A stretch of 64,000 bases of DNA, taken from assembly GCF_963921235.1 (NCBI RefSeq), contig NC_086097.1, positions 134,046,001 to 134,110,000 of the forward strand, in the 5' to 3' direction. The notes beneath the pieces are model-generated. The model searched no databases. It was not told the origin of the DNA and worked only from the letters and a program-made list of their open reading frames with translations. The stretch is from Mobula hypostoma (lineage: Eukaryota). Shown piece by piece: positions 26,749 through 64,000 of the stretch (the stretch's first letter is position 1; every line of letters starts with the position of its first letter). The position numbers were made by a program, and so were the translations under genes.

Positions 26749-27990
26749 ATGGCTGGCTACATTGGAATGATAGACATGTTTGATTACACATTAGATAACT
26801 GGATTTTTATACTGAGCAAATTCAACAGAATTTTCAAGCAAATAAAATAACCAATGAGAAACATATACCAATTTTGCTGAGAGCATTGGGTTTAAAGGCA
26901 TATAGTTTGCTTCAAATTTTGACTGCTCGGACCAAACCAACAGAAATGAGCTTTGCTGACATTATCAAAGTGATGCAGGAATATTTAGAACCAAAGCCAT
27001 TGTTCATTGCAGAATGCTGTAGGTTTCAAAAGCATAATCAAAAAGAAGAGAAATCCACTTCAGCCTACGTAGCTGAACTGAAGAGATTGTCAGTTTGGTA
27101 ATGGACTTAATGACACACTAAGAGATCGCTTAATTTGTGGAATCTTACAAGATAGCATTCAAAAACGGCTCCTAGCTGAAATACAACATGCATTTAAAAG
27201 AACAGTTGAAATTGCTCTTTCAATGGAAAGTGTAGATAGAGATGCAATTGAGTTGCAATCAGGAATGAAAGTGAGCATAAACAAAACTGCAAAGTCCAAA
27301 CAGAAACCAGCCTGGCTGAACAGATTGTGTTAATGTTGTGGCAAAGTCTCACATACACCAAAAAAATGCATGTTTAAAGGTGAAAATTGCAGAAAATGCA
27401 ACAAAGTAGGACACATACAAAGGATTAATTGGGCAGACAAAAATAAGTGAAGAGAAAATGTGAAGCACAGAAAAGAGAAAAAGTCAAGCTGCAATTTCAA
27501 AACGAGCATTATTCTACATGCTGTTGATGAAAAATCTGATAATGATGAAAGTGACACAGGACTGAGTAACCTTGGGATATACAGTGTGAAAATTAACAAT
27601 ATGGTTTATGCCAGAAGTGAACGACAAATTAATTAAAATGGAATTAGACACTGGTTCAGCTGCTGCAGTCATATCACAAAATGAGTTTGAGAGGCATTTC
27701 AAAGATACTAAACCGAAGTCTGTAGATATCCAATTAAGAACTTATACTGGAGAAAAGATAACTCCTGTGGGAATGACATTCTTAAAAGTAGAATACAATT
27801 TTGGATTTTACCACATACAAGCTAAATTGAGCTTGTGATTAGTAAAAGCAGGAGGACCAGCACTGTGCGGGCATGATTGGCTGAGCCAACTACAACTTGA
27901 TTGGAGATCCATCCATCATTTGCATGCCACATCTCCTACAATAAAGTCAACTGAAAGTGAACTAAGAAAGGTACAAGATGATGCCACAAC
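26749..27990 (+). pseudogene. Gypsy gag-protease remnant (stops and frameshifts)
   Basis: MAGYIG... start; YLEPKPLFIAECCRFQKHNQ...YVAELKRL (gag); CCHC knuckle remnants at ~27330-27430 (CRKCNKVGHIQR); MELDTGSAAAVIS aspartic protease motif; GGPALCGHDWLSQLQLDW. Confidence 0.85.
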
Positions 27991-28039
27991 TGTCTCCATG
28001 CCAAACATCATGAACCGTTGCCCCACAGAGGACAAGCAA

Positions 28040-28573
28040 GTGTTGGTGCCATCCTCTGTGCCTCTGGTTCGAAAGTACATTGGACCAAGGAACGACTATG
28101 CTGCTCAGGGGAACCATGAAAGTGACGAAAGCAGTGATCTGACTACGACAGTGTTTGTAAGGAACATATCTGAGAGACCTCCTGATCTGTTAATCAGGCT
28201 GTTACTTGCAAAATGTGGCTTGGTTTTAAGATGGGAGAGAGTCAAAGGAGTTTCTGGATAGTTGCAAGCATTTGGCTTTTGTGAGTATATAGAACCAGAA
28301 TCTACTCTGCATGCATTTAGGTTATTGCATGAACATCAAGTAGATGCAAAGACCAAAGCCCAGCCGGATGAATGGAAGGCCAAAAAGAAAGGAGTCAACA
28401 GAGATACAAAAATAGAGGATTTATCAGATGATGTGAATGAGGAAACCAAAAGGGGAGACCAGATCATAAGGGGAGCAATAGAAGGATTAATAAGGGAATA
28501 CTCCAGTGAACTAAATGTCCCTTCCCTAGATTAAGATACATGAACTAGAAGAAGCAAAAAAGAATAAGAAGAA
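28040..28573 (+). pseudogene. rbm25: Intronless (transduced) fragment of RNA-binding protein 25, RRM region
   Basis: VLVP...TTTVFVRNISERPPDLLIRLLLAKCGLVLRWERVKGVSG*LQAFGFCEYIEPESTLHAFRLLH...VDAKTKAQPDEWKAKKK...GAIEGLIREYSSELN closely follows RBM25 (TTTVFVGNISEKASDMLIRQLLAKCGLVLSWKRVQGASGKLQAFGFCEYKEPESTLRALRLLH...). In-frame stops at 28259, 28532, 28541 and 28565. Confidence 0.93.
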
Positions 28574-31940: not shown

Positions 31941-33038
31941 CACCATCTTAGTACGTATAACTGAAGCTAAATTGTATTTAAAGTGAAAACGGTTTAGTGG
32001 GAGTTCAAGGACATTAGTAGAATACAGCTGAAGTTCAAAACTCTGGGCATTTCCTTACATTGAGTGTACTACTAACATAAGCATACACAGAGATCACACA
32101 CACGCATAAAACTGCTTCCCCTTATACCACCAGCAGACATATACAGTGTTAGAGCAAAAATGTATGTTGGTAGATTGAAGATTCAGTGGAAAGAAAATCT
32201 TATTCACACAGTCATGAAAATATGGAATCTGTTGGCTGGAAGACTGGAAGAGAGATAAGTGCCCGCATGATGCACTGTACCCTGCTCAGGCGGGTTATGG
32301 AGTCAGCGATTGGACTTAGTCTCAATTGCTCTTTTTTTATAGGCAGCGGGGAAGTAAAGTGCCAAATTACCTCCCCGTGTGCAGTAAATCTCTTCCTTTC
32401 TACACCTTGTTCAATTGGGTTTAGTATTCACACCTGAACAGGACCTAATATTCCAAATCGTTTACAGATATGAACAGGTGGATTAATTCCTGGCCTCTCA
32501 GGTCATTTCACACAGTGACTGCCTACCAGCTGAGATACCAAATGTTGACGCCTTGCTGGGATTTTCAAGTAAAATGCAAAGGCTTCTCTTACAGTGGCTG
32601 CTGCAGCCCAGCACCCGGGAGTAAATCCACTCATTCCACAGTTTCAGTTATTTCTCCTTGCGGAATAGTGAGAGAGAATGAGAAATAAGCCATCCAACCC
32701 CTCAAGACATTTCCGCCATTGACCATATCTGATATGTTTTGCCATGTCGTCCACTTGTCTCGAACTACCTGCTAACTAAAATGTTTTAGTTTGTGGGGAA
32801 ATGGACGGCCAGAATACCACTACCTTCTGAATGAACAAATTCTGTCTTTTCAATGGCTTTGCTCCAATTTTGTTCAGCCCCTTCTCTCTTGTTCTAGACA
32901 CACATATCAAGGGAAACAGTTTTCTTCTCTCTGTGCTGTCTTCTCCTTAAGCACCACATTTTGATCACCTTTTTAGTCTTCAACATGTGCACAAACCCTA
33001 ACAAGGCGTTAAGAGGGGATTGGTAATTTAAAGCAAAT

Positions 33039-33042
<4 letters not shown>

Positions 33043-33074
<32 letters not shown>
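33043..33074. repeat. (CA)n microsatellite
   Basis: Read directly. Confidence 0.95.
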
Positions 33075-33076
<2 letters not shown>

Positions 33077-33534
33077 CCAACTAAATTAACTTCATTCCGG
33101 TACACACTGCCGGCACATTCTGTCACGTGAACATTATATTGACACCTAGAACAACCTGGATGAATACAGCCACCAAGCATTACACACAGCAGCGAAATGC
33201 AATGTAGTAACATTTACAGTAGCTGTTCCTTCATTTGTTCATCGCGCCAGGTTTAAAATCCTAATAATAACTTTAAATTAAACTAACAGATTTTAATAAA
33301 TCCCTGTCCGGTGAGGATGTGGAACTCATTCCCAAATGGAGTAGTTGAGGCTGTGCATTGAAAAAAGTGGAGTAAACACAGGAGAGAAGAGAATAGGCAG
33401 AGATGATGATGAGGGAGTGGAGATGAGGGAAGAAGCTTGTGTGGGATGTGAACAGCACCATGGACTATCGGGGACCACAAGCTGCGGACTCTATGTAATA
33501 CCGAAAATGTTTATTAAAACGAACTTGATGTCAG

Positions 33535-34470
33535 ATTAAAAGGGAGGAAAACTGCAGTAACCTCTCAGATTAGACAAAAAGAAGCAACATAGATGGAATG
33601 TTTTAGTCTGGCCTCAGAGTTATTTTAGCAGCAGAATTACTGAGGTGATTAAAGCAGCATTGTCATGATTAGTCAGGTAGTAAAGTCCATTTGTCACCTG
33701 CACCAGTAAATTGAGTTAATACTGCACTACGGGCTATAGGGACTGTATAATATCAACTTGATCACATCAAAATGACTGCCAACCTGACACCTTACTAAAT
33801 TTATCAGCATTAATCATTGAACCTGTCACAAATCCATCAAGTTTACAGATAATTAGATGCTTTGTAATGAAACGGGAGAAACATCCCCATTCTCTCCATT
33901 TATTTTTGCAAGTGATAATTCCAAGGTCTCCTGGTTTATGAAGAACCATTTTCTCCTTTCCTTACACCCATGCAGAAGCAATGGAAATGTTCCCCTTTCC
34001 TGAGTCCTCATCTTGAATTCCCCTCCATCCGAACAGTTGGCCCACATCTTTAGGGCCCAAATAATCTCGTTAAGACTCTCTGGATACTGGTCTGGGGGGA
34101 AAAATGTCAAGTTGGTGCAGCTGGACAAGGCAAGGGATATCCTAATGAACCCAAGATTCAAATATGCAATGTGCTTAAAGTGCTACTACAAAAGATATTT
34201 TTGCATCTTTTCAGCTAATTTCCTATCTGTTTAAACAGCAGATGACTTAGTCATCAACTCCTTTGCAATTGCAAACCTGCATTTTGATTAAGCATGCCAA
34301 ATGTCATGTACAGCAAAGAACTGAAACACTAAAGCCTGCCAACTTTTGATTGGCCATTAAAACCAATGATGTATGTGCCTGTCAAAAGACAGACAATTAA
34401 ATCAATATTGGAAAAAGTCGCCTTGACGGCTTGTTTCTATGTAAGAGCTGTCAGGACGAATTACCATGCA
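33535..34470. promoter_or_regulatory. Candidate Pbx-Hox/Meis enhancer cluster near exon 1
   Basis: Minus strand TGATTAAT (33809-33816), TGACAG (33823-33828) and TGATGGAT (33832-33839) within 31 bp; many more TGTCA/TAAT sites; TE-free. Confidence 0.5.
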
Positions 34471-35674
34471 CCATCACGCTTGAATCAAATGTCCAGGACC
34501 GCTTATATAAAATATTTGTTGTTCAAAGTTGCAAATATCCGATAACCCACGAATTAAATCGAAACGTACAATGTCATCCAGACTCACCCACCCGCAGTTG
34601 TAAATCTCATCCCAGTAAAAGGTACAATTAGAACACGCACAATGGAGAATTGTTTCGGTGGTGCATTTTTTAAAGTAAAAAGGAATATCAAGTTAATTAT
34701 TTTGTACTTGAATGGGGCGGGAGAGCGGAATGAGAGAATGAAGAGAGCCTTAAAACTTGTAAGGGTCGATAGGGAAATGTGACGGAAAGGGATGAAGGCA
34801 AACTTGTGGGGTTGAGGGTAAAATAATGATAAGTGTTGTGGCTTAGTGTGCACCACGTCAGGAACATGTGGGTTGCTATGGTGAGTGATTTATTGATGTT
34901 ATCAGGAATGAATAGATCAAAGGATGCCTGGATGACAGAGGATCAATCACATGTCAAATCAAGGATAGGAATCGTCTATTAGGGATAGAAAGAGTGGGAA
35001 AAAAAACTAGGTCCCGTTGACCACACAAAAAAAATCTTGCAGTTGAAAAAAAACTTGCCCTCTTCATTTGCTTTCATTTTAAAGACATACATTTAAACAA
35101 TAGGGTAAAAAACTTACAGCATTCCCCGACAGGTCCATACTGCATATACCTCTTATCGATAGGGTGACTTGTTACTTTAAAACATCATTGTTTGGTTTTT
35201 TTTGGAAATTTTCACTTCCTTATTTTTAAAAAGAAAAAGAAACATAATATTGTCTTTTTTTGTTCTAGTGCGAATGTCCAGACTTTCAGTGCTTCAATGC
35301 TATATTGTGTAAAACGAAAAAAAAACGAGCTGCACTCCTGATTGGAAGGGGGGGGGGGAAGCGTGTCTCTGGGTCGGGGAGGGGTGGGGGTACACAAACA
35401 GGTGAGGGGCTCTGGTGGAGATGCAGTCAGCAGATCGTCGACGCAGCACAGGGGGAGATTGCATGATCAGGACAGCGTCTGACAGACAGCTGACAAACCA
35501 CGCCACTCACACGGGGAAATAGTGTACCCATCTGCATAACATACACACAAATGCAATATAGAGAGGGGGTGGGAGGATGGTTAGTGTTAGTGAGGGGAAA
35601 TAGCCCTAAAAATTAATCACTATCTCCGTATCTTGCATTGGGCACAGGATTTGGATGAAATGCAAAATAAAGTC

Positions 35675-35728
<54 letters not shown>
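35675..35728. repeat. (CT)n/(GA)n microsatellite just inside tshz1 intron 1
   Basis: Read directly. Confidence 0.95.
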
Positions 35729-35730
<2 letters not shown>

Positions 35731-35739
35731 CGATCTTAC

Positions 35740-35779
35740 CTGCCGACCGTCGCGGCGCCTGCTGTTTTCTTCTCGGCAT
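35740..35779 (-). CDS. tshz1: Teashirt homolog 1, coding exon 1 (13 codons + 1 nt, phase-1 intron follows)
   Basis: Reverse complement reads gagccATG CCG AGA AGA AAA CAG CAG GCG CCG CGA CGG TCG GCA G|GTAAGA = MPRRKQQAPRRSA plus a canonical donor. This is the vertebrate teashirt N-terminus. RRSA matches TSHZ1 (as I recall, TSHZ2 has KRAA and TSHZ3 RRAA), and the adjacent ptgr3-like remnant supports TSHZ1 synteny. Confidence 0.93.
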
Positions 35780-35908
35780 GGCTCTGACCGCTTCTGACGC
35801 CGGTTGGGACTTTCCAGAGTTTTGACTTTAATTTTCGGTGTTTTCATGCAGACCAATAAAAGGCAGGAGGCGAAAAAGTAGCAATTTTTTTGGGTGTGGT
35901 GGTAGGTG

Positions 35909-35911
<3 letters not shown>

Positions 35912-35941
<30 letters not shown>
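35912..35941. repeat. (GT)n microsatellite upstream of the tshz1 ATG
   Basis: Read directly. Confidence 0.95.
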
Positions 35942-35942
<1 letters not shown>

Positions 35943-37528
35943 GGGGAGGGTGCAGTAGGGAGATGTGGTGGTAGGGAGAAAAAGGGGATGGGAGAGGAAA
36001 AGTTACAGCTCTTGAAAGAGGGAAGGAGGCGTGGGTCTGGTGTGGTGTCCTCACTCTGCTGAGGCTTTGTAGCGTGGATATCGATAAAAAGCGGCGGCCG
36101 CTCGGAAGAGCTCCTCAGTGACAGCAGAGAGGAGTGAGAGTGAGAAGGATTCCAGCCACCGCTTCATGTGCATGAGACAGACACACACACTACAGTTACT
36201 TCGCACCTCAGGTCCCTCTCTCACTCTCTCTGCGCCCACTTACAGCACTTCAATCAATGCAGCCAAGACATCACACACAGTTGAGTGAGAGAGCTGTGAA
36301 CTATTTCTGCACCATCAGTATTATTATTTTTTTTGTGAAGGGGGCGGAGGCGGTGGGGAGAAAAACTCTCTGTTGGGCTGTGGGGAAATCCACCATGCAA
36401 GACAGTCTCAGCGGATCCACAGAGCCATCGAGCAGTGCCCAGGGATAATCTCCTCTTCACCTACAGACACCAGCGCACTGCAATGTTCTCAATGATCTCC
36501 TTTGCTCAGGGAAGTATTAACGCAGCGCAACAACATTTTAAAAGGTTTCTGTTTGCGATCCAAATCTAATTGGCGTTTGTCTGCGAGGTACACTGGTAAA
36601 CCGTAGCTGCTTTTTTCTCTCTCTCTACCCGGTGAAATTGTTTGCAATTCCTGGATGAGGATTCAGCCGCTTGGACAGCCAGTAAGATTTGATTGTTAAG
36701 GTTTTCCCCAACCTTTAAATCTTAAAATCCCCCGTGGCGTTTCTACATTTATAGGACCTCAATATTCCAAACTTATATGCTGAATGAAACAAAATAAAAC
36801 TACGTAAGACTGCAGCTCTGCTGGCCTTGGGATATTTCTGTCGGCGGTCTCTATAAGAGGTTATTTGCCAAGCGGGATGTTGTAATGTGAACTTTCCAAC
36901 TAATTGTCAATTAAGTCTCCAATTGAACAAAAGTCTTCTTCTTTCAAGTTAATACTGTTTCTTCAAACATATGCCCGCTATTTTGGGTTATAGTTGTGAA
37001 GAGTACATGGATTTCGCATTTTTCCCTCTTCTACTTTTGGTTGGCTGAAACTCGGCTCCAGATTGATTCGTTACACCTTTAAGGAAGTGGATGCTTCGTA
37101 CGGGAAGAGGAGGTCCTCCCGCTCTCTCTTTCTCTGCCGCGTTCTTCCTTGCACTGATCTTACTCAGAAATATTACTCCATACAATCGTATTTTGCACTA
37201 CCGCCCACCTCTCTTTGTACCGAGTTTGTGCCGTAAAACCAACGACAGAGAATATTTTTTCGAATACAAGTTCCTCTTCTCCTCATATAAAGAATGCAGC
37301 TGGTCAAATCCAAGCAATAATAATTGAAATCCCCAGTGCGTGCATTAACTGTTGTGGCACTTTGCTTAACTTTATTCCTTGTTTTTGCTCCCTGTTGGTC
37401 GCTCGGTGACCTGTTTAGGGTTGGTAGGGAGGAGGGGGTGTTGTTACGCTGGCTGCTTCGCCCGACTCCACGTTACAAGTCTGGGGTTGGGCTGCCTTCC
37501 AGCGACCACTGCTCACCGCTGTCGAGTC

Positions 37529-37689
37529 GCCGGGTCCCTCTCGCGCCGTCTCCCGGAGTCCAACGCTTCGTCTGTCAGCGGCACCATGAGAAAACGGGCA
37601 ACGGAATACGCTGAGCCCGAACTTCAGAGAAGCGGTTCGCGTTCAACGCGCCAACCCCCCGCACACGCAGAATTACCGCTCCGCAATCG
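37529..37689 (+). pseudogene. ptgr3: Degenerate exon 1 of prostaglandin reductase 3 (PTGR3/ZADH2)
   Basis: Frame A gives AGSLSRRLPESNASSVSGTMRK (cf. human [22 protein letters not shown]). A +1 frame at 37611-37637 gives exactly LSPNFREAV. Frame A ends ELPLRNR with CG|GTGAGT (cf. DLLVRNR at the exon end). Head-to-head with tshz1, as in human. Confidence 0.75.
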
Positions 37690-40405
37690 GTGAGTGCATC
37701 TCCAGAATTTTAGCTCGACTGCAAATTTAAAAGTAAAACTTCCGCTGGAAACGGTCGGTCGAACGTTTTTTTTTACAACATAGCGATCTGCTGATGATCC
37801 TGGGTTCTGAGTCACAAATCCTCTTGAATTTGGTTTTTAAAAAAGGAAATAAAAAGGGGAGTGGGGGGATTGGAAAAATAATGTCCGACCCACTTGCACT
37901 TGAATGTTAGAAGTGCGTGTGGAGGTGATACGTATAGAACAACTCCAGGTTCCGCCCTGACATCTGTGCACTCATCCGTCCGTCATAACCCGTCCATCTA
38001 TCTGTCAGTCTGTCTGTATGCCTTTTGAGTGCCTGTGCGTCAGTTCCAAGCGCGGTTACGTGTGGGCTGTAGACTGACACAGATACACTCACACTGACTG
38101 ACTGACGGACTAACTGGGGGCAGTACTGTACATCGAAAGAGAGAGAGAGAGAGGGAGATAGTGCCACAGAACTCCACGCAGTGAAAAAAAAATCTCTTAA
38201 TAACTCCCAACATTGCGGATGTTTTATTACAACGTGTAAGTTAGTCCCTGTAAGCAATAGCTTTGCCTTTTTTAATTTTACACTTTTGTACTTATCCCAC
38301 ACGGGAAAATAGTGTTGCTGGATTTGGATATTATATTGTAGATTAAGATATCCAAATCAGGAGCGGGGTTAGTCATTACTCATAATGGAATGTACTTCTT
38401 TTACAAAGCAAAGCTTGGGAATTTTAACCGTTTTCGTCACTCTTGTGGCGCTACAGAATTGCAACATCTTACGTTTGAACATTAGGGTATACCTCGGCAG
38501 AATCAGGAATAAAATAACCCCTGGTTCAGATGGCACTGCACTCCCAATCCCCTCACCCCCTGCCACCACTTCTCCTCCTTGCTCCCTCTCCATATATTCC
38601 ATTTTTTTGTGCAATGTATCGGGAGTCACAACTTTATTAACGCACCTCCAGTTCCCTGGAAATGTGGCGCATGTCAGTGTCGAGTATAGTTGGAGACCCG
38701 TCCGGTATTTTAGCGTTCCATTCGCAGTTCAATTTAGAAAGCGTGCACTGTGTTATGAAGTGGAATTCTGATGTCCAAATACCGAATAGTGCCCTCAGCG
38801 AAGAATGGGTCACTTTACACGCGTTTTCTAAACTGGATTCTCAAGTGCCCCTCAGTAGGTGAGCGAACCGCAATTAGAACTGTTGGACCACACAGGATTT
38901 TAACATTTGATAGACAAGTTAGCCACTGCTGATAAACGAAACATAAGGACATACAATTCAGGTCGTCTTGAAGAACAGAAGGACGCACACACAAAGATGG
39001 CCTTTTTCCCACCTACGTCCTTTCCTGAATAAAATAGAATTGAATTATGTAATTTCTACTTCACCAGCGTTCGATATACACCAGATAGTTTGGCTATAGA
39101 GGCGTTCCTGCCCTGGTAAATTGTTCTGGTAAATCCCTGCCTTGATCGATTGTGGATATTCCACAATCTGTTTTTAGAGAATCCTTATGCGATAACCTGC
39201 CGTTCAAACTCCTAAAGACGCCCTCGACGTTCTATTCACCTTACTTATTCTTAAAAAGGGGGAAAAATCAGATTCCTGATGCCACATGAATGAATATATG
39301 TTCTCTTTTTTGTTGGTTTACCTATGAGGGAGCCTGGGAGATTTAATATTCCTTTCTCGTTATCATGAACAGTTAATGAGGGTAGGGTAGTCGTTAAATA
39401 TTTTACAACGCGTGGGAATGTATGTTTAAAAGAAAAAGGCATGTTGACAATAATCCAAAATACGATTTCGATTTTTTTTAAATTCACCAAAATTTCATCT
39501 GAACTGCACCCTCATTTATACACAGCACCTTGCGGGTTTGGGTAAACTTACTGAACCATTTTCTCCATGTTTAGTTCGGTCGTAAATTCAATTTGGTTAG
39601 GATTGTGGCAGAATAAGATATTACAAACGTATGTTTTAAGGAAATCATTTGAAGGCTTCATTGGTGGGGTGATTCCTAATCATCATTCGATATAAATTGT
39701 ATATTTTTTTATTTCTTTAAAATATAGCTTCCAGGATTCTGCATTCAGGCACGACACTTATAATTTTAAATTTGAGACTTTCTCAGGATTAACCTCGCAA
39801 TACGCGGTCTCGGTTTTTGCAAACTCGTTGCGCTTTTTTTTTGGAGTCGCAGTCTTAAATCGAGATTCTGTGTCAGAACATCTGGAGTGTTTGTACCTGC
39901 TGCAGCCCGATAGGAGGATGTAACTCAAACAGCGGGATGCCCTGACTAGCGGCGGAGTAGATCATTTTAGTCAGTGCTATTGCAGATTACACGCGCAGGT
40001 AACATTGTTCGCGTGACTTGTGGGACGATCGCGGCGACTACGAAACCAGGTTGTACACGTTAGTTAGGCGTCAGCCAGAAGCTATCTTGTCCTTTTTGAC
40101 CACGTCAAAATTAGAGAGATTGCCTGCCGGTGAATTCTGCGGGAAAATCTCGACCTTAAATAAATAAACATTCTAGGAAGATGAAACAATATGTGGAAAT
40201 ACGTTTTTAAAGAAAAGAGAAACAAATAGGGGTGTTTTGGAGCAAGATTTTAAAACCGGAAAGGCTCTCTTCTGTCTGACCTGTGTTAAAGTGATGGCGA
40301 CTAGCTTTGATACCTTGATCATGTCAAGAGCGAGCGATAAACGCTGGTTATTGGAAGGTTATTCAACCCAACAAAATGCGACTGTTCTTTGTAAACCTCC
40401 ACAAG

Positions 40406-40406
<1 letters not shown>

Positions 40407-40442
<36 letters not shown>

Positions 40443-40485
40443 GGAGGGAGAGTGAGTGAGAGAGAGGGGGAGAGAGAGAGAGAGA
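40407..40485. repeat. (GA)n-rich microsatellite
   Basis: Read directly. Confidence 0.92.
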
Positions 40486-43400
40486 ATAACTAATCAAAAG
40501 GCGCAGACATTTGAAATCTATAGAGAGTGAATCAAATTGTCTTGGTACAAGAAGCATTAAGAGAAGAGGGTTGATTTAAGTAAAAAGGTCTCTCAAAACT
40601 ACCAAGGAAACTCTCACTTCACACTTAAACACAGGGAGAGAAAAACTTTCACAGAATTTCAGCAGTCTTAAACATAAATGAAACTAGTTTTATTCCTGTC
40701 ATTGAAGACCTTTATAAATGTGTTTACTTACGCATCTAATTCAAACTCAAACTGCAAAAAATAGCCTGCATTCCATATGGAGTTCACGGAATCCAACTCG
40801 AACTGGAACTCTTGAAGTCAGTTTTATTTATTTCTTTAATACCATTATTTATTGGGAGGAAAGGTGTTCTTTTAATAATTCAGTGGGTTTCAGATGAACT
40901 AGTTAGTTTGTGACCATCGTACTGTTAATATCCAAATGATTCCAATCCTTAATGTTATTCTTGAAATATTTTAAATTGTATCCAAACCCGGGCTACGTAC
41001 AGAAGAGGATTCAGAGTTCTTAGAATAACATTCAGAGCTTTTAATCTTGTTAAGATTTTAACGTTTTGATTTAGAAATGTATATAAAGATATGATGCGGT
41101 TTAATTCCTTCATAGAAAACTAAATAAATGAACCTTAGTTTAAGAATTAAACCAAAAATGTTTCGAAGTTTTAGCTATTGCGTTAAAACTCAACACACTA
41201 AATAATAAACTCCTGGAGAACGGGATATTAAATGTGTTTTTTTTTTAAATAACGGCACAATAGGTTTGTAATTGTATGTCAGTGAACAATTCGATCCCGG
41301 ACACAGAATTTCCTTGACAAAATCACTCCATTCACATACATTCAAACGTCCACGGAAACGATTTTCTGCCAAGTTCTGATACAAACTCAGATCAGATAAA
41401 GCACAGAAATGGGTCTTTGTCCGACACAGTTTCACAATCAACATACGCAGAGGGGACTTTTATCTCATTTCGGCGAAAACTTCCACCGCTGTGCTTAAGG
41501 GGTTACCTGCCACACAGTGAAATTAGAATGGTTCCAGTGAATGGCCACTGTCGTACTTAACATTCATTCCATTATTCCGAAACACACAACGCACGAAGAT
41601 CAAATAATGATCCTTCAACTGCACTCACGCAAGAATTCATTTGGCTGTAGGAGGTGCAGGGAGGTGAGGTTGAGCAGCATAATTCAGGAAACTTGGTTCT
41701 AAAACGCATTAGCGCAAAGGTCCCTTGCGCGGTAAAACTGTCAACACCGTCTCAAAACTGGTGAGTGGTAGATTCATAAAGAAATCTTGGTTGTTTCTCT
41801 ATTTTATGATGAAACAGTTTGCTAATGTCCAACATACTTTTTGAGGAGCATTGACGTCCAGTACCTGGACTACGATGCTCCTAGTAATTTAAGTTGGATT
41901 CACTAAACAAAAACGGCTCCATTTCTCTCATTTTCTTCCAACGTTATGGCCCTTCATGATGGTTCGCCCAAGTTCCAGGTTAACTGAACTGTTTCAATAA
42001 GTTGTGTAGATTCGGGAAGAAAATTATAATCGAGCATCCAACTACACCTGGTACATTGGTTATGATAACCTGTCCCAATCAGAGTTCACTTTTAGCTGGA
42101 ATTGTAGAATTTCACTGCACAAACGGTTCTGATGTTAGTCCTCTCATCCCTCTGCCCTTACTTCACCTCACTGTTCTTTTTTCCCCCAGCATGATTGTCT
42201 ATTTCCCTTTCCAAAGATGGAATATATTTCATTGTCCCTGCAGTGGCTTTCTTAATATTTGGAAATTTATATTAAACACCTCGCCCCATCCTTCCTTTCT
42301 TCACCCAATCTCAAAATTAGCAAGCCAAAAGTGCAAGTAATTAAAATCACTTATAATTTGGAACCTTACATTAAAATCCCTTTGGTGTATTTGATGTATA
42401 TGATCCTTGTTTAGTTTCTAACAATGGAAATAATCTACATTGCATGCAAGTATGCCCAGGGATGACTCTCTATACCACAACTCTTTGTTCTTTCAAGATT
42501 CACTGGCAAGTCAATGTCCTGAGTCTGCTGTATTTTTTAAATGGTTAAAGAACAAGATTTCAATTATTCCTTGTAATAAACTGTCTTCTTCTGCATACAT
42601 TCCAATTCCTTTGGAAAAAAAAAATGCCTACAATATCAAGACTTACAATTTATGGGGTAATATTACCAAATAATTGACAATTTATACTTTAATGGTATTC
42701 AAACATTTTAATCAATTGAGTCCCTGCTAAAATCCTTAAAACTAAAGGATATATTTCTCGGATAATGAATATTTGAGTTCATTGGCAACATGATCATTCT
42801 AGAAATTGTTAGGGAGTTATATTTATAGCATTATGATTAATAGGGTTGTATTTTTTGAAACAAATGCATATTATTTTTCTATAAACAGGCAATATTGTCG
42901 AATTGTACTATACCACCTTCAGTGGTCTGTTACAAAAAGACTGAAATATGGTTCCTCAGAAGCAGTGACATGGGGTCCATCCTTTTCCATCATCTTTTAT
43001 TAACAAGGAGGGCAGGGCTTGGATCCAGATGAGAAATGTAGTCCATTGAGAGATAAACATTTCACAAGCTCACAACTACAATTCTGGAGCAGAGAACCAT
43101 CACTGGAAAAAGTAAGATAGAGAAAAATGTAGAGATAAAGAAGGGTAGAAAAATTACAGCAAATAGACAAAAGTGGTTTTCAGAGACTGCAATAAAACTA
43201 GAGGACACATATAGGCTGTATGAGACTTGCCTTTTATATATGACTCCATATTAAGTCATAGCCTATATCCAACTATGCAATAATTTTTTTATTTGAAGTG
43301 TGCAATTCCAAATAGACAAATAACTACCTCGATGGAAATATTTTAGAATTGTTCTTCTTGTAGAATGTTAAAATATAACTAACATTAGGGATTTTACACA

Positions 43401-44044
43401 TTTAAAGATGTTTTTTTTTTCCTCTACCAAGTTGTGCTCTGGAATTTGCTGCCTGGAAGGGGAAGAGAAGCAGATTTGGATTTTTCCAATGCCACTTTGA
43501 AAGGAACCATCCAGAAGACTACAGGTGAAGAGCAGGTGAGTGGGATTCTTCAGCTAACCCCATCAAACAGCCAAAGAGGTGGCACAGACAGATTGGACTA
43601 AATGGCCTCTTGCTGTGTTCTATGAATTGTGATATTTTCATAATAGGAAAATGATGGTGGGCAGCACTACCAATGACCGGATATTGGCTAGCACTCATCT
43701 GCAATAACCTTTACCAAGTTCTGAATTTCAATCACATTAAAATAGAGAAAAACCTGACAGAGCATTGTAAGATAAGCAGTATCATGCCAGTGCACTTCCT
43801 CGATGCTGGTCACCAAGCAAAATCAGTGCAAAAGTATAAAATACTGCAGATGCTGGAAATCTGAAATTAATTCAAAAATTGCAAAGATACTCAGCAGTTT
43901 GGGCACTGTCTGTGGCGAGAGAAACAGAGTTCATATTTCACGTGAGTGAGTGGTCGAGCTTTCAGGTGCTGCACTTGAGCTTACATTGGGCAGTGTTGGA
44001 ACAGCATGAGCCAATGGCAGAGAGGTCAGAGTGGGAATTGGGAG

Positions 44045-44262
44045 GAGTGGCATGGTAGTGTAGTGGTTAGCACAATGCTTTACAGTACCAGCGACCCGGG
44101 TTCAATTCCTCCCATTGCCTGTAAGGAGCTTGTACATTCTCCCTGTGACTGTGTGGATTTCCTCCCACATTCCAAAGGTATACCAGTTGCTAGGTTAATT
44201 GGTCATTGTAAATTGTCCTTTTTTTTAGATCAAATTGGGTGATTGCTAGGTGATGCAGCTTG
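44045..44262 (+). mobile_element. V-SINE/HE1-like SINE
   Basis: GGTAGTGTAGTGGTTAGCACAATGCTTTACAGTACCAGCGACCCGGGTTCAATTCC head and V-domain-like body; same family as 51588-51870. Confidence 0.8.
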
Positions 44263-45291
44263 AAGTCAGTAAAGTTTTAAAATAAATAAAATTACAACGG
44301 CAGATATCTGGAAGCTCAATGTTAGCTCGTGTAGATTGGATAGAGGTACTCTGCAAAATGATCACTCAATCTGTGTCTGGTTTAGAGACCACATTAGGAC
44401 AATGGAATGCAAGGTACTAGGTTGGACCAAATTGTCAGTGAATCACTGCTTCAACCTGAAATGTGAACCTGTTTCTCTCTATATGACTGACCTTCTGATC
44501 TGAGTACTCCCAGCATTTTCTTTTCTCTACATCAGTTGAGTGTGTTGCATGAATGCTCTGTGGGTAAGATGTACTTTAGGGAGTAGTGGTGGATTAACAC
44601 TGCATCAGCCAATGAATTAGAGGAAAGTTGGAACGTATGACTGACCAGGCTATTGTACAATAAATAAAGTCAATTTGTTCATATATAGTATAATTAAAGA
44701 GTAGAAGAAATAGACTGCAGCATTATTTACTAGCAAAAGTGAGGCAATTTTTCTGAAAAATGCAGTAAGTAGAAGATAGTATATATGAATGATGTGCATA
44801 AAATTGATCTAATCACGTTTATGCTGTGGGCTCTAAAATTGATTGATAGGGATATTACCAATCATATTTGGTTAAAGTATTGTCATCAAATGCACCCTTA
44901 GAAATGACAGTTTAAGATTGTTTAACCAAAATGATGTGTTGTACAACATATTGTAATTTGTGTGATAGGCAGTGCTTCGATTCTCTAGTTGTGTCTGAAT
45001 TAAGGCAGGAAAGGATTCTTTCACCGGTACAAAGAGGAAATTGCATTTACATGGCATCTGTAACAAAGTAAAGCACCTTGGGGCTCTTACTCAAAAAGCA
45101 ATGTCAGACAAAATTTGATGATGTGAGGGAATATTATGGATAGGTGTCAAAAACATTGTCCAAAAGTTAGATTCTGAGGATAGTTTCAAAGAATGGAGAA
45201 AGCACTGATGATATAGCACTAGCTTTTACTTGCATGGACATGACTTTCTATTAAAAATTTTATTATAATTTCCCTTTGGAATTTTTACTAT

Positions 45292-45295
<4 letters not shown>

Positions 45296-45330
<35 letters not shown>
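45296..45330. repeat. (TA)n microsatellite
   Basis: Read directly. Confidence 0.95.
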
Positions 45331-45333
<3 letters not shown>

Positions 45334-48319
45334 GTTTGTTTTCTTACTATTACCTATTTGCATAGTGAATGTGATTGCTGTTATTGATTCATTTATGTGG
45401 ATTTGAATAAATGCAGTTCATTTTCAATCTTGAAGTTATGAAAAGGTATAGTTATCTTCATTCTACAAAGGCTAATTCACATACTAATACAGAATTAAAA
45501 ACATTTTTGATTTAACACTACTCCTTCAGACAGTACTTGGGGAATAGTGAGGTAAGGTTTCTTAAAGGTATGATCTTTGTATAGATTTGAAATGAAGTGT
45601 TTAAAAACAGCACACAATCCTTGAGAATCTTATGATCTGAAGGGTTAACAATTTCATGGATTTTTTTTCACAAAGGGTGCTGGTTATGGCTTATCTGTTC
45701 CAAATTTAAAATTGTACTGTGGGTTGGATGAATAATTAGTTGGTCCAAATTCAACCCACAGTCCGTATGTTGCATAGTTCCACTCAAAAAACCTATTGGT
45801 TCATGAATAATGAGGTGTTAAATGGACCTATTTAAACAAACAATTATCAGATTGGTATTTGAAAAGGTGAAAACAAGGCCATTAATCTTTTATTTAAATA
45901 TACAAGTGATTTTTAAATGTTATACTGAAATTAAGATGATACTTTCATAATATCTGTAATGGGAAATCTGTAGAAATGGATGTCTTGAAAATATCGGTTT
46001 AAAAAGACTAATCTCTCGAAGAGATGATGTAATTTCTGTGATCAAATGCAAATACAATACTGAAAGTCTGAAATTTTTTTTAAAGTGCTGCAAACACTCA
46101 GCTGGTCTGAGAGTATGTTTGGAAAGAGAGCAAGTTAATGTTTCAGGTCTGAGATCTTTCCTTTATATAGCATTTTTAAAATAACAAAAATGGTACCAGG
46201 TGTGCTTCAATTTGGAGATGTTTAGCTTAAAGGAGGTTATCATTGAAGGTAGAAGGTAGAACGGTACAGCACAGTACAAGTCTTTCAGCCCATCATGTTG
46301 TGCTGTCCCTTATCTTAGACCAATCTAACCCTTCCCTCATGTGCCTAACTAAGAATTTCTTAAATTATCTGCCTCGACCACCACCACTAGCTGCGCATTC
46401 CATGCACCTATTATTCTCTGTGTAAAAATCCTGCCTATGACAACCCCCCTATTCTTTCCTCCAAGTATCTTAAAGTTAATGCCCTTTCATATTATCCATT
46501 ATTAGAAGTCAAGAAGATTTTACAAAGCATGGGAGCATAGGGGGCATCGAGTTATCCTGATGCTGGGTATCGACCCAAAGCTTTCTTCCCACGGATGCTG
46601 ATTGACCCAATGACCCAATGACCCAATGGAGAGTTATAGGGAATTCCAGAGAATGGGACAAACATGGCATCAACAGTGGAGTGAGGGAGAGGGTTTATAC
46701 ATGAGGTGTGAGTGGAAGAAATGAGACGAGCTGTAAGGCCTTCAGTGACTGGGAAGGAAAAGATCTTGAACAAAGGGAGTTTTACCTCTGTTCTGTTTGG
46801 ATGGAGTCTGGGTGAGAAATGCAAGCAAGGACTCTATCAATCACTATAGGAGGGGAGCTACATATCCTGAAAACAAAGACAATCTCTGATGAACACAAGA
46901 GATTCTGTAGGTGCAGGAAGTCCAGAGCAACACACACAAAATGCTGGAGGAACTCAGCAGATAAGGCAGCATCTAAATGAACAGTCAGCGTTTTGGGCTG
47001 AGATCCTTAATCAGGACTGCAGACCTGGAATGGAAGGCCTACATAGCAGAGATGGAGAAACAGGAAGAAAGGAGTGGCATTTTTACAAGAAACAGGGACT
47101 TAAGGAGATGTAGTCAAGGTAGCTTTGGGAGTCATTGCGGTTATAGAATCGGAATCAGATTTATTATCATTTGTTATTTTCTGGCAGCAGTACAGTGTAA
47201 GCATAGCAAATTACTTTAAGTTACAATAGCAATAAATAAATCGTGCAAAAGAGATATTGTCCATGGGTTGCACCTAGATTTCTTGAAGGGTTCTGGATTA
47301 CTGGCCTTAAGTGCCACAGGTTTATCCCTCAGCAAGCTGTGAATCATCCACACCTTCTGATCTGGTACATTTGGTATGTTCTCAAAGGCACATGCACACA
47401 TCCACACAGGTCTTGATGTCCGTGCCAGTGGATAGTTTGTCTCCTGAGATGAAGGTCTAAAAGTGCTGGAACCTGAAAAGTACGAAAGGTGATGATGGAA
47501 ACAATTTAAACGAGAGAGATGGCAGAGGATTTGTTTGGAAATTGTATGGGTAGTAAACGGGTGCAACCAGGAGGGAGAAGAGACAAAAAAGTACAAAGTG
47601 GGGCTGTGGGGGAAGGCAGTAATTGGGAAAACGGAACAAAAAAAATAGGACTACAGGTGCATTGAAAGGGGAGGGGGGAACATGGGGCAATATTTGAAAA
47701 TGAAAATTTATATTAATTGTTCAACCCCTTAGGTTGTAGACAACCCAGGTGGAACGTGAGTAATTGTTTCCCTATGTAGCGGAGAAACAAAGGCTTCAGA
47801 TGCCGGAATTCCAATCTCCACCACTCTCCCTCTCTCTCATACACTGGCTCCCTCTGCCCATCAATCTTCATTCCTCCTCTGTCCACCTATAAATCCAGTT
47901 CCTATCTCACCGCCGCACTCCCCCCCCCCACCCACCTCTTTATGCCAGCTATCTTCCCTCTCCACTCTCAGTCCTGATGCAGGGTCTCAAACTAAAACAA
48001 ATTCAGTTCTTTCTCTTCACATAAGCGGCTTGACACACTGACTTCCTTCAGCGGTTTGTGTTGTGCTCTACAAAATTACATATTTTCAATTGCAGAGAAG
48101 GGGGTGGTGTGGAAAGGACCAGGAGAGGCTGTGATGTCATTGGTTGCACTGGAAGTCGAGGGACTTGTGAAGGCTTGTTAATTCGGAAGAAGGACATTTC
48201 AGCTGTTATTCAATTAGCATTTCAGTTGCTATGCTAATCTCTTTTCCTGGTTTCTCCATCTCTGCCTCATCTGTTTGCAGAATGAGGATCTCCATTTTGA
48301 TACCGGTCCTTTAATCCAT

Positions 48320-63364: not shown

Positions 63365-64000
63365 AGTTCAAAGTAAATTTATTATCAAAGTACATATATG
63401 TCACCATATACAGCCCTGAAATTCATTTTCCTGTGGACATACTCAATAAATCTGTAGAGTACTAACCATGAGAGAATCAATTAAAGACAATAAACTGTAC
63501 AAATACAAATAGAAAGAAATGATAATGAATAATTATGCAATAAATATCGAGAACATGAGATTAAAAGTCCTTGAAAGTAAGTCCATTGGTTGTGGGAACA
63601 CTTCAATGATGGGGCAAGTGAAGTTATCTCCTTTGGTTCAAGAGCCTGATGGCTGAGAGGTAGTAACTGTTCCTGAACCTGGTGGTGTGAGATCTGGGGC
63701 TTCTATACCTTCTTCCTGATGGCAGCTGTGAAAGGAGAACATATCCTGCGTGGTAAGGGTCATTGATGATGGATGTTGCTTTCCTCCAGCAATATTTCAT
63801 GTAGATGTGTACAGTGATGGGGAGGGCTTTACCTGTAATGGACTGAGCCATGTCCATTGCATTTTGTAGGATTTTCTGTTCAAGGCCATTGGTGTTTCCG
63901 TACCAGGCTGTGATGCAACCAGTCAATATGCTCTCCACCACACACCTATAGACGTTTGTCAAAGTTATAGATGTCATGCCAAATCTTTGCAAACCCCTAA
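63365..64000 (-). mobile_element. L2/Rex-Babar-type LINE 3' end (runs off the window)
   Basis: ORF 63624-63992: YRCVVESILTGCITAWYGN...LPSGRRYRSPRSHTTRFRNSYYLSAIRLLN. Confidence 0.88.

Follow-up and report, generated by a model that had tools for sequence, protein, structure and literature searches.

A decayed first exon of ptgr3/zadh2 beside tshz1 is spliced to a LINE-derived exon, probably as part of a divergent non-coding RNA

In the part of Hezroni et al. (2017, PMC5577775) that deals with lncRNAs derived from lost coding genes, the human lncRNA LOC102606465, divergent to DPH5, is traced to the lost gene LOC768855, and the authors ascribe the retention of its sequence to DNA elements. The remnant of ptgr3 (zadh2) analyzed here resembles it in that a lost enzyme gene stood head-to-head with its neighbour and that the promoter apparently still yields a spliced, divergent RNA. 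On the other hand, gene and lineage are different, only exon 1 is ancestral at the ptgr3 locus, the neighbour is a developmental regulator within a cluster of ultraconserved elements, and the second exon is derived from a LINE, with an acceptor that is drifting. The same source describes JPX, which arose from USPL; as in the ptgr3 remnant, the first exon alone resembles the lost gene, a short ORF persists, and the remainder comes from transposable elements (PMC5577775). JPX differs in possessing an ancestral upstream ORF with tested function, whereas the ATG of the ptgr3 remnant is an internal methionine codon and a candidate start only. The loss of the same enzyme gene has a parallel in zebrafish, in which ZADH2/PTGR3 is reported to be absent; this was an independent event, and the part of that report concerned with the gene describes no remnant or transcript (PMC8919083). 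The present locus appears to work in the manner of these lncRNAs of coding-gene origin, the DPH5 divergent RNA and JPX being the closest of them.

The coding block of the remnant occupies positions 37529–37689 on the plus strand of the window, by which we mean the whole stretch of DNA that was analyzed, 64,000 nucleotides in length. Its relationship to PTGR3 is revealed by comparison with DNA and with full-length proteins. A motif scan of metagenome contigs yielded 41 loci, 40 of which are chance matches and one of which, L011, is ptgr3: it carries a teleost-like exon 1 with a phase-2 donor after RNR, as in the window. When L011 was compared with the whole window using blastn, the exon aligned with 62.6% identity in a match of 123 nt that takes in the donor (E 7e-4). 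A frameshift-aware profile built from 109 full-length PTGR3 proteins gives the exon a score of 86, the match ending exactly at 37690, compared with 42 for the next best site in the window and at most 39 for the nulls. Searching the PDB (177,635 sequences, to E 10) with the exon read through its first break returned two matches in all, both weak and both to human ZADH2 (E 0.31 and 1.8); the 27-residue shifted frame alone gave no match in the PDB, and a homologue search with the fossil alone gave 13 candidates, none reaching E 10. The protein tree was built from 42 of the 46 chosen proteins, the other four having been dropped as they were without the anchor motif. The remnant thus has in common with vertebrate PTGR3/ZADH2 exon 1 (L011; PDB structures 2x7h, 2c0c and 2wek) its homology to the block running from DMSY to RNR, a phase-2 intron immediately 3' of RNR (CG|GT both here and in L011) and a similarly spaced upstream element, and it adjoins tshz1 on the opposite strand (tshz ATG at 35779, minus). 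It differs by two frame breaks, by the loss of the DMSY methionine, by splicing to a LINE exon, and by the state of the 27 positions that are invariant in at least 90% of 181 PTGR3 blocks, 13 of which are kept and 14 changed. Judged from its sequence, 37529–37689 is a fossil ptgr3/zadh2 exon 1.

Several ancestral elements can still be recognized in this block. The ATG at 37586–37588, with the good start context GGCACCATGA, corresponds to an internal methionine codon of ancestral PTGR3 and is the sole ATG in the stop-free frame 37370–37689; from it, 35 codons lead to LRNR, followed by GTGAGT from 37690. The nine-codon PTGR3-like island LSPNFREAV, which the sequence-only reading had placed in a shifted frame, is indeed located at 37611–37637, one frame on from ATG 37586. 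The donor CG|GTGAGT (37690–37695) has the place and the ancestral phase 2 seen in L011 and is in use, its junction being found in all four runs described below, so that the earlier claim of a persisting good-context ATG and donor holds for both. The exon also sits, as proposed, within the tshz1 CpG island, at the local peak of CpG observed/expected (1.22 in 37501–38000) and within a 12-kb stretch without self-repeats (32001–44000). The CpG-rich domain reaches about 4 kb into the intron, CpG observed/expected being about 1 in five of six 500-nt bins of 39001–41500 at a G+C content of only 34–44%. The window contains 25 TTCNNNGAA sites, and the one at 37623 was given no weight.

The lesions that break the frame were examined against L011 and against independent sequence data. 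DNA alignment to L011 places one extra base near 37602–37604, which bears out the 1-nt insertion proposed earlier, and sets GGG (37532–37534) opposite the ATG of the DMSY methionine. The proposed deletion of about 10 nt is recovered after position ~37653, as a gap of 7 nt relative to the teleost sequence and of 10 nt relative to tetrapods, whose blocks have one more residue (57 amino acids compared with 56). Among 23 runs listed, 20 contain the stretch; four of them, from four studies and four organisms (A, B, D and E), were aligned as Logan contigs (X10, X16, X19 and X20), stretches to which no contig aligned being left out of the argument. None of the listed runs that contain the stretch is recorded as RNA, a blank to which no weight was given. 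In all four the frame is identical, with no gap in 37529–37689: the gap letters, 21 in the X19 contig and 11 in the X20 contig, all fall upstream of the fossil block; the contigs of X10 and X16 are gap-free. Over some 1,090 nt, organism D shows 25 and organism E 22 substitutions relative to the window, of which two fall inside the fossil block. The identical frame in four independent runs rules out assembly error as the source of the indels and means that they are not private to one species. The view of the lesions as recent or species-specific has to be corrected, as they are common to organisms 2–5% apart in flanking DNA; the disabling changes are fixed alike in A, B, D and E, as in a unitary pseudogene, the class to which the earlier reading assigned the remnant and to which it may belong.

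With respect to the age of these changes, the score of the exon fits a decay of about 20% in simulation (median score 94 at 20% and 57 at 30%), and the divergence between A and D, 1–5%, is far below this value. Since the decay so greatly exceeds the divergence, ptgr3 would have died well before organisms A, B, D and E split. The suggestion that the two indels compensate each other stands in so far as they add up to a multiple of three and leave ATG 37586 in frame with the donor. It does not extend to the enzyme, which is not rescued: the donor leads into an exon of LINE origin, and every second near-invariant residue, roughly, has been replaced. In place of the open frame with conserved residues of a functional PTGR3 there are two indels with 13 of 27 residues kept, and in place of a junction to a catalytic exon of about 310 codons there is the LINE exon in four of four runs.

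That catalytic exon could not be found in the window. In agreement with the earlier statement that no exon 2 of about 300 codons appears in the 26 kb downstream, tblastn with five PTGR3 orthologues and an hmmsearch profile gave no exon 2 in the window, and a frameshift-aware scan of the window (to position 64000) with a 309-position exon-2 profile reached 70 at best, compared with 59–67 on control strands. Simulated exon 2 sequences at 20–30% decay score 237–545 when whole and 52–231 when reduced to a third; the power of the scan drops at 40–50% decay or for small pieces. In an alternative explanation ptgr3 moved or was duplicated, a working copy being present elsewhere in the genome and the exon here having been left behind, with no loss of the enzyme. 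No cartilaginous-fish PTGR3 is named among the 120 best of 156 matches of a homologue search or among all 120 of a second profile search, and all 53 unnamed matches are nearest to a named bony-vertebrate protein; as word-limited searches that failed to return coelacanth and lungfish too, they are weak evidence and leave some room for such a copy. No second exon-1-like contig was found at 80% likeness in the four runs, although an old copy would fall below this level. Moreover, the loss of ptgr3 has its precedent in zebrafish, according to the passage cited above (PMC8919083). Taken together, a displaced working gene appears unlikely.

The exon 1 remnant is, on the other hand, joined to something else. 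The divergent spliced transcript from the old donor that had been anticipated is borne out by contigs that leave the genome at 37689/37690 in four of four runs. The transcribed first exon covers at least 37051–37689, the contigs starting at 37051 (X10) or 37148 (X16) or reaching upstream beyond 36600 (X19 and X20); it is followed by an intron of 5,742 nt (37690–43431; 5,770 nt to the second acceptor) and by a new second exon at 43432–43535, all on the plus strand. This exon, 104 nt long in A and B, begins 28 nt later, at 43460, in D and E, and is followed by a GTGAGT donor at 43536. Its placement was made from the first 30 letters and the length of the loose end of each contig; acceptor 43432 is preceded by a pyrimidine tract and AG, and the lengths of the loose ends terminate at the GT of 43536. 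No third junction at donor 37690 is listed in the four runs. The contigs spanning the junction measure 743 and 646 nt, and the GT-AG pair lies on the plus strand, from which the strand of the transcript was inferred, the contigs being unstranded. A spliced product above 200 nt in the syntenic place and on the syntenic strand, from runs presumed to be RNA, is a feature that the locus shares with lncRNAs of this origin. In D and E the unspliced contigs have depths of 39 and 36.5, compared with 142 and 447 for the junction contigs, contig depth being a poor measure of expression. The spliced form is unlikely to stem from a retrocopy: the X10 contig is identical to the locus over all 639 bases, and the acceptors differ by organism. 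Screening of 34000–46000 against Rfam gave no match at gathering score. In X19 and X20, one contig spans 36600–37690 and runs about 660 nt further towards tshz1; because of this continuation, the divergent transcripts of the ptgr3 remnant and tshz1 may overlap at their 5' ends.

The material of the new exon comes from a mobile element. A profile made from five further LINE tails found in the window picked out, by nhmmer, the decayed 3' end of a LINE at 43438–43639, which is in sense orientation on the plus strand (E 1.1e-5, compared with E 2.1 for the best null), and the tail encodes a peptide resembling that of an ORF2 end; we take the family to be CR1. By its repeat families, the window would come from a cartilaginous fish. 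Elsewhere in the window, at 27620–28540 on the plus strand, a retrotransposon-protease-like frame with several stops runs in-frame into an RBM25-like RNA-binding stretch. If its parts are, as we assume, a retrotransposon protease and the RNA-binding region of RBM25, it is possibly a piece of host mRNA captured in a mobile element; the stop-free parts gave no Pfam or PDB match.

On the other side of the remnant, 1.8 kb away, lies the 40-nt coding part of a tshz exon 1 (35740–35779, minus strand; ATG at 35779, followed by a phase-1 donor GTAAGA), which was located by an N-terminal motif that we take to be that of the tshz proteins. ZADH2/PTGR3 and TSHZ1 are head-to-head in human, and from the ptgr3 neighbour we infer that the gene is tshz1 and not tshz2 or tshz3. 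According to the portion of PMC3436827 concerned with them, TSHZ1 and ZADH2 belong to the same cluster, which comprises 59 ultraconserved elements; in the light of this shared cluster, it is plausible that ptgr3 was a bystander within the tshz1 block. Between the two genes, a non-coding element at 37061–37119 is conserved with the region upstream of teleost ptgr3 (75% over 60 nt, E 4e-5). It is colinear with the exon match, the distance to the donor being 571 nt here and 589 nt in L011, and no substitution is listed for it in either of the distant organisms; from its sequence, it is likely part of a shared promoter. A third colinear match to L011, a weak one, joins 36329–36443 of the window with 3185–3288 of L011 (local score 45, compared with 39 for the highest of 30 nulls) and falls in the probable 5' region of tshz1. 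A 78-codon ORF on the plus strand (37091–37327), without Pfam match, begins inside the conserved element and is probably a chance or upstream ORF.

The rate of change across the locus was compared between A and D. In the 3' part of the exon, 5 of 365 positions differ; for the adjacent intron the count is 5 of 436, and for the upstream sequence it is 20 of 725. A distal segment at 39310–40390, compared by means of one contig of depth 13, has 58 differences in 1081 positions. Relative to this distal segment, exon (p 6e-4) and adjacent intron (p 5e-5) are both slow; exon and intron do not differ from each other (p 1.0), and the difference between exon and upstream sequence is not significant (p 0.20). 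That the exon and the adjacent intron are equally slow fits either constraint at the DNA level or low mutation in the CpG island better than it fits a peptide. In the stop-free frame, three of four changed codons in D and two of four in E are non-synonymous, which is neutral-looking on small numbers. On the other hand, the run of nine intact codons is longer than shuffling usually gives (p 0.04, at a site that was found by that very run), and a stretch of 106 codons in the frame of ATG 37586 contains no stop (chance 0.10); both observations fit some residual coding or motif constraint.

These measurements also weigh on the notion of a new micropeptide starting at ATG 37586 and made of 35 codons, partly out-of-frame ptgr3, with a LINE-derived tail. 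The good start context, the lack of a stop ahead of the donor and the occurrence of a single change in the 35 codons between A and either D or E would be in its favour, and in the spliced form of A and B the ORF comprises 66 codons with the 43432 acceptor, ending at an in-frame stop codon (43526) 7 nt ahead of the next donor. However, the 43460 acceptor shifts the frame, so that the tail is not shared between A/B and D/E, the intron is conserved as much as the ORF, and the proportions of non-synonymous codons given above look neutral, small as the numbers are. Moreover, three upstream ATGs precede it (37007, 37091 and 37294), no Pfam match was obtained, the unspliced 35-residue ORF is absent from the protein collection, and a search of 1.84 billion representatives gave a single match, to an unrelated protein that is long and repetitive; we consider such a product very unlikely. 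A working PTGR3 with remodelled N-terminus, its donor skipping the LINE exon in some tissue and joining an intact exon 2 beyond the window, would profit from the net indel change, the ancestral donor phase and a solved human construct that starts at about the methionine of ATG 37586 (2wek matching from chain residue 1), but is scarcely credible given that no such junction occurs in four of four runs, that the indels enclose some 24 out-of-frame codons, with conserved residues changed on both sides, and that the 26 kb downstream hold no exon 2.

The explanation that we favour with reasonable confidence is that of a decayed ptgr3 exon 1 which no longer serves an enzyme and whose donor splices to a LINE exon, likely giving a divergent non-coding RNA and likely kept as DNA of the promoter shared with tshz1. 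Under this explanation the enzyme gene would have died long before the organisms split, its catalytic exon having been deleted, buried in repeats or moved, and the CpG-island promoter would have gone on firing away from tshz1. The strong orphan donor may then have recruited a cryptic acceptor within the tail of an intronic LINE, the exact position of the acceptor having drifted since, and the brake on change would be exerted by promoter DNA and low CpG-island mutability, not by a protein. Mammals already provide examples of this class of event, and the surprise is moderate; the locus would provide a clear non-mammalian case of the passage from coding gene to spliced non-coding RNA in which each step is visible, namely the broken ancestral exon, the reused donor, the exon recruited from a LINE and the drift of the acceptor between species. 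It would also make it possible to test whether it is the protein or the promoter that preserves a bystander gene at a conserved developmental site.

PTGR3 is intact in bony vertebrates according to the profile searches, and no report on ptgr3/zadh2 in sharks or rays was found in the literature searched; the lineage from which the window comes has probably undergone an unreported loss of this peroxisomal prostaglandin reductase. A bolder proposal, which we regard as doubtful, is that ptgr3 was lost at the base of the rays or of sharks and rays as a whole, and that exon 1 and its donor have been kept by selection because spliced divergent transcription itself tunes tshz1. If this were true, the lineage would run without the prostaglandin reductase PTGR3 and would constitute a natural experiment in which the protein of a bystander gene is separated from what its promoter and first donor do in cis.
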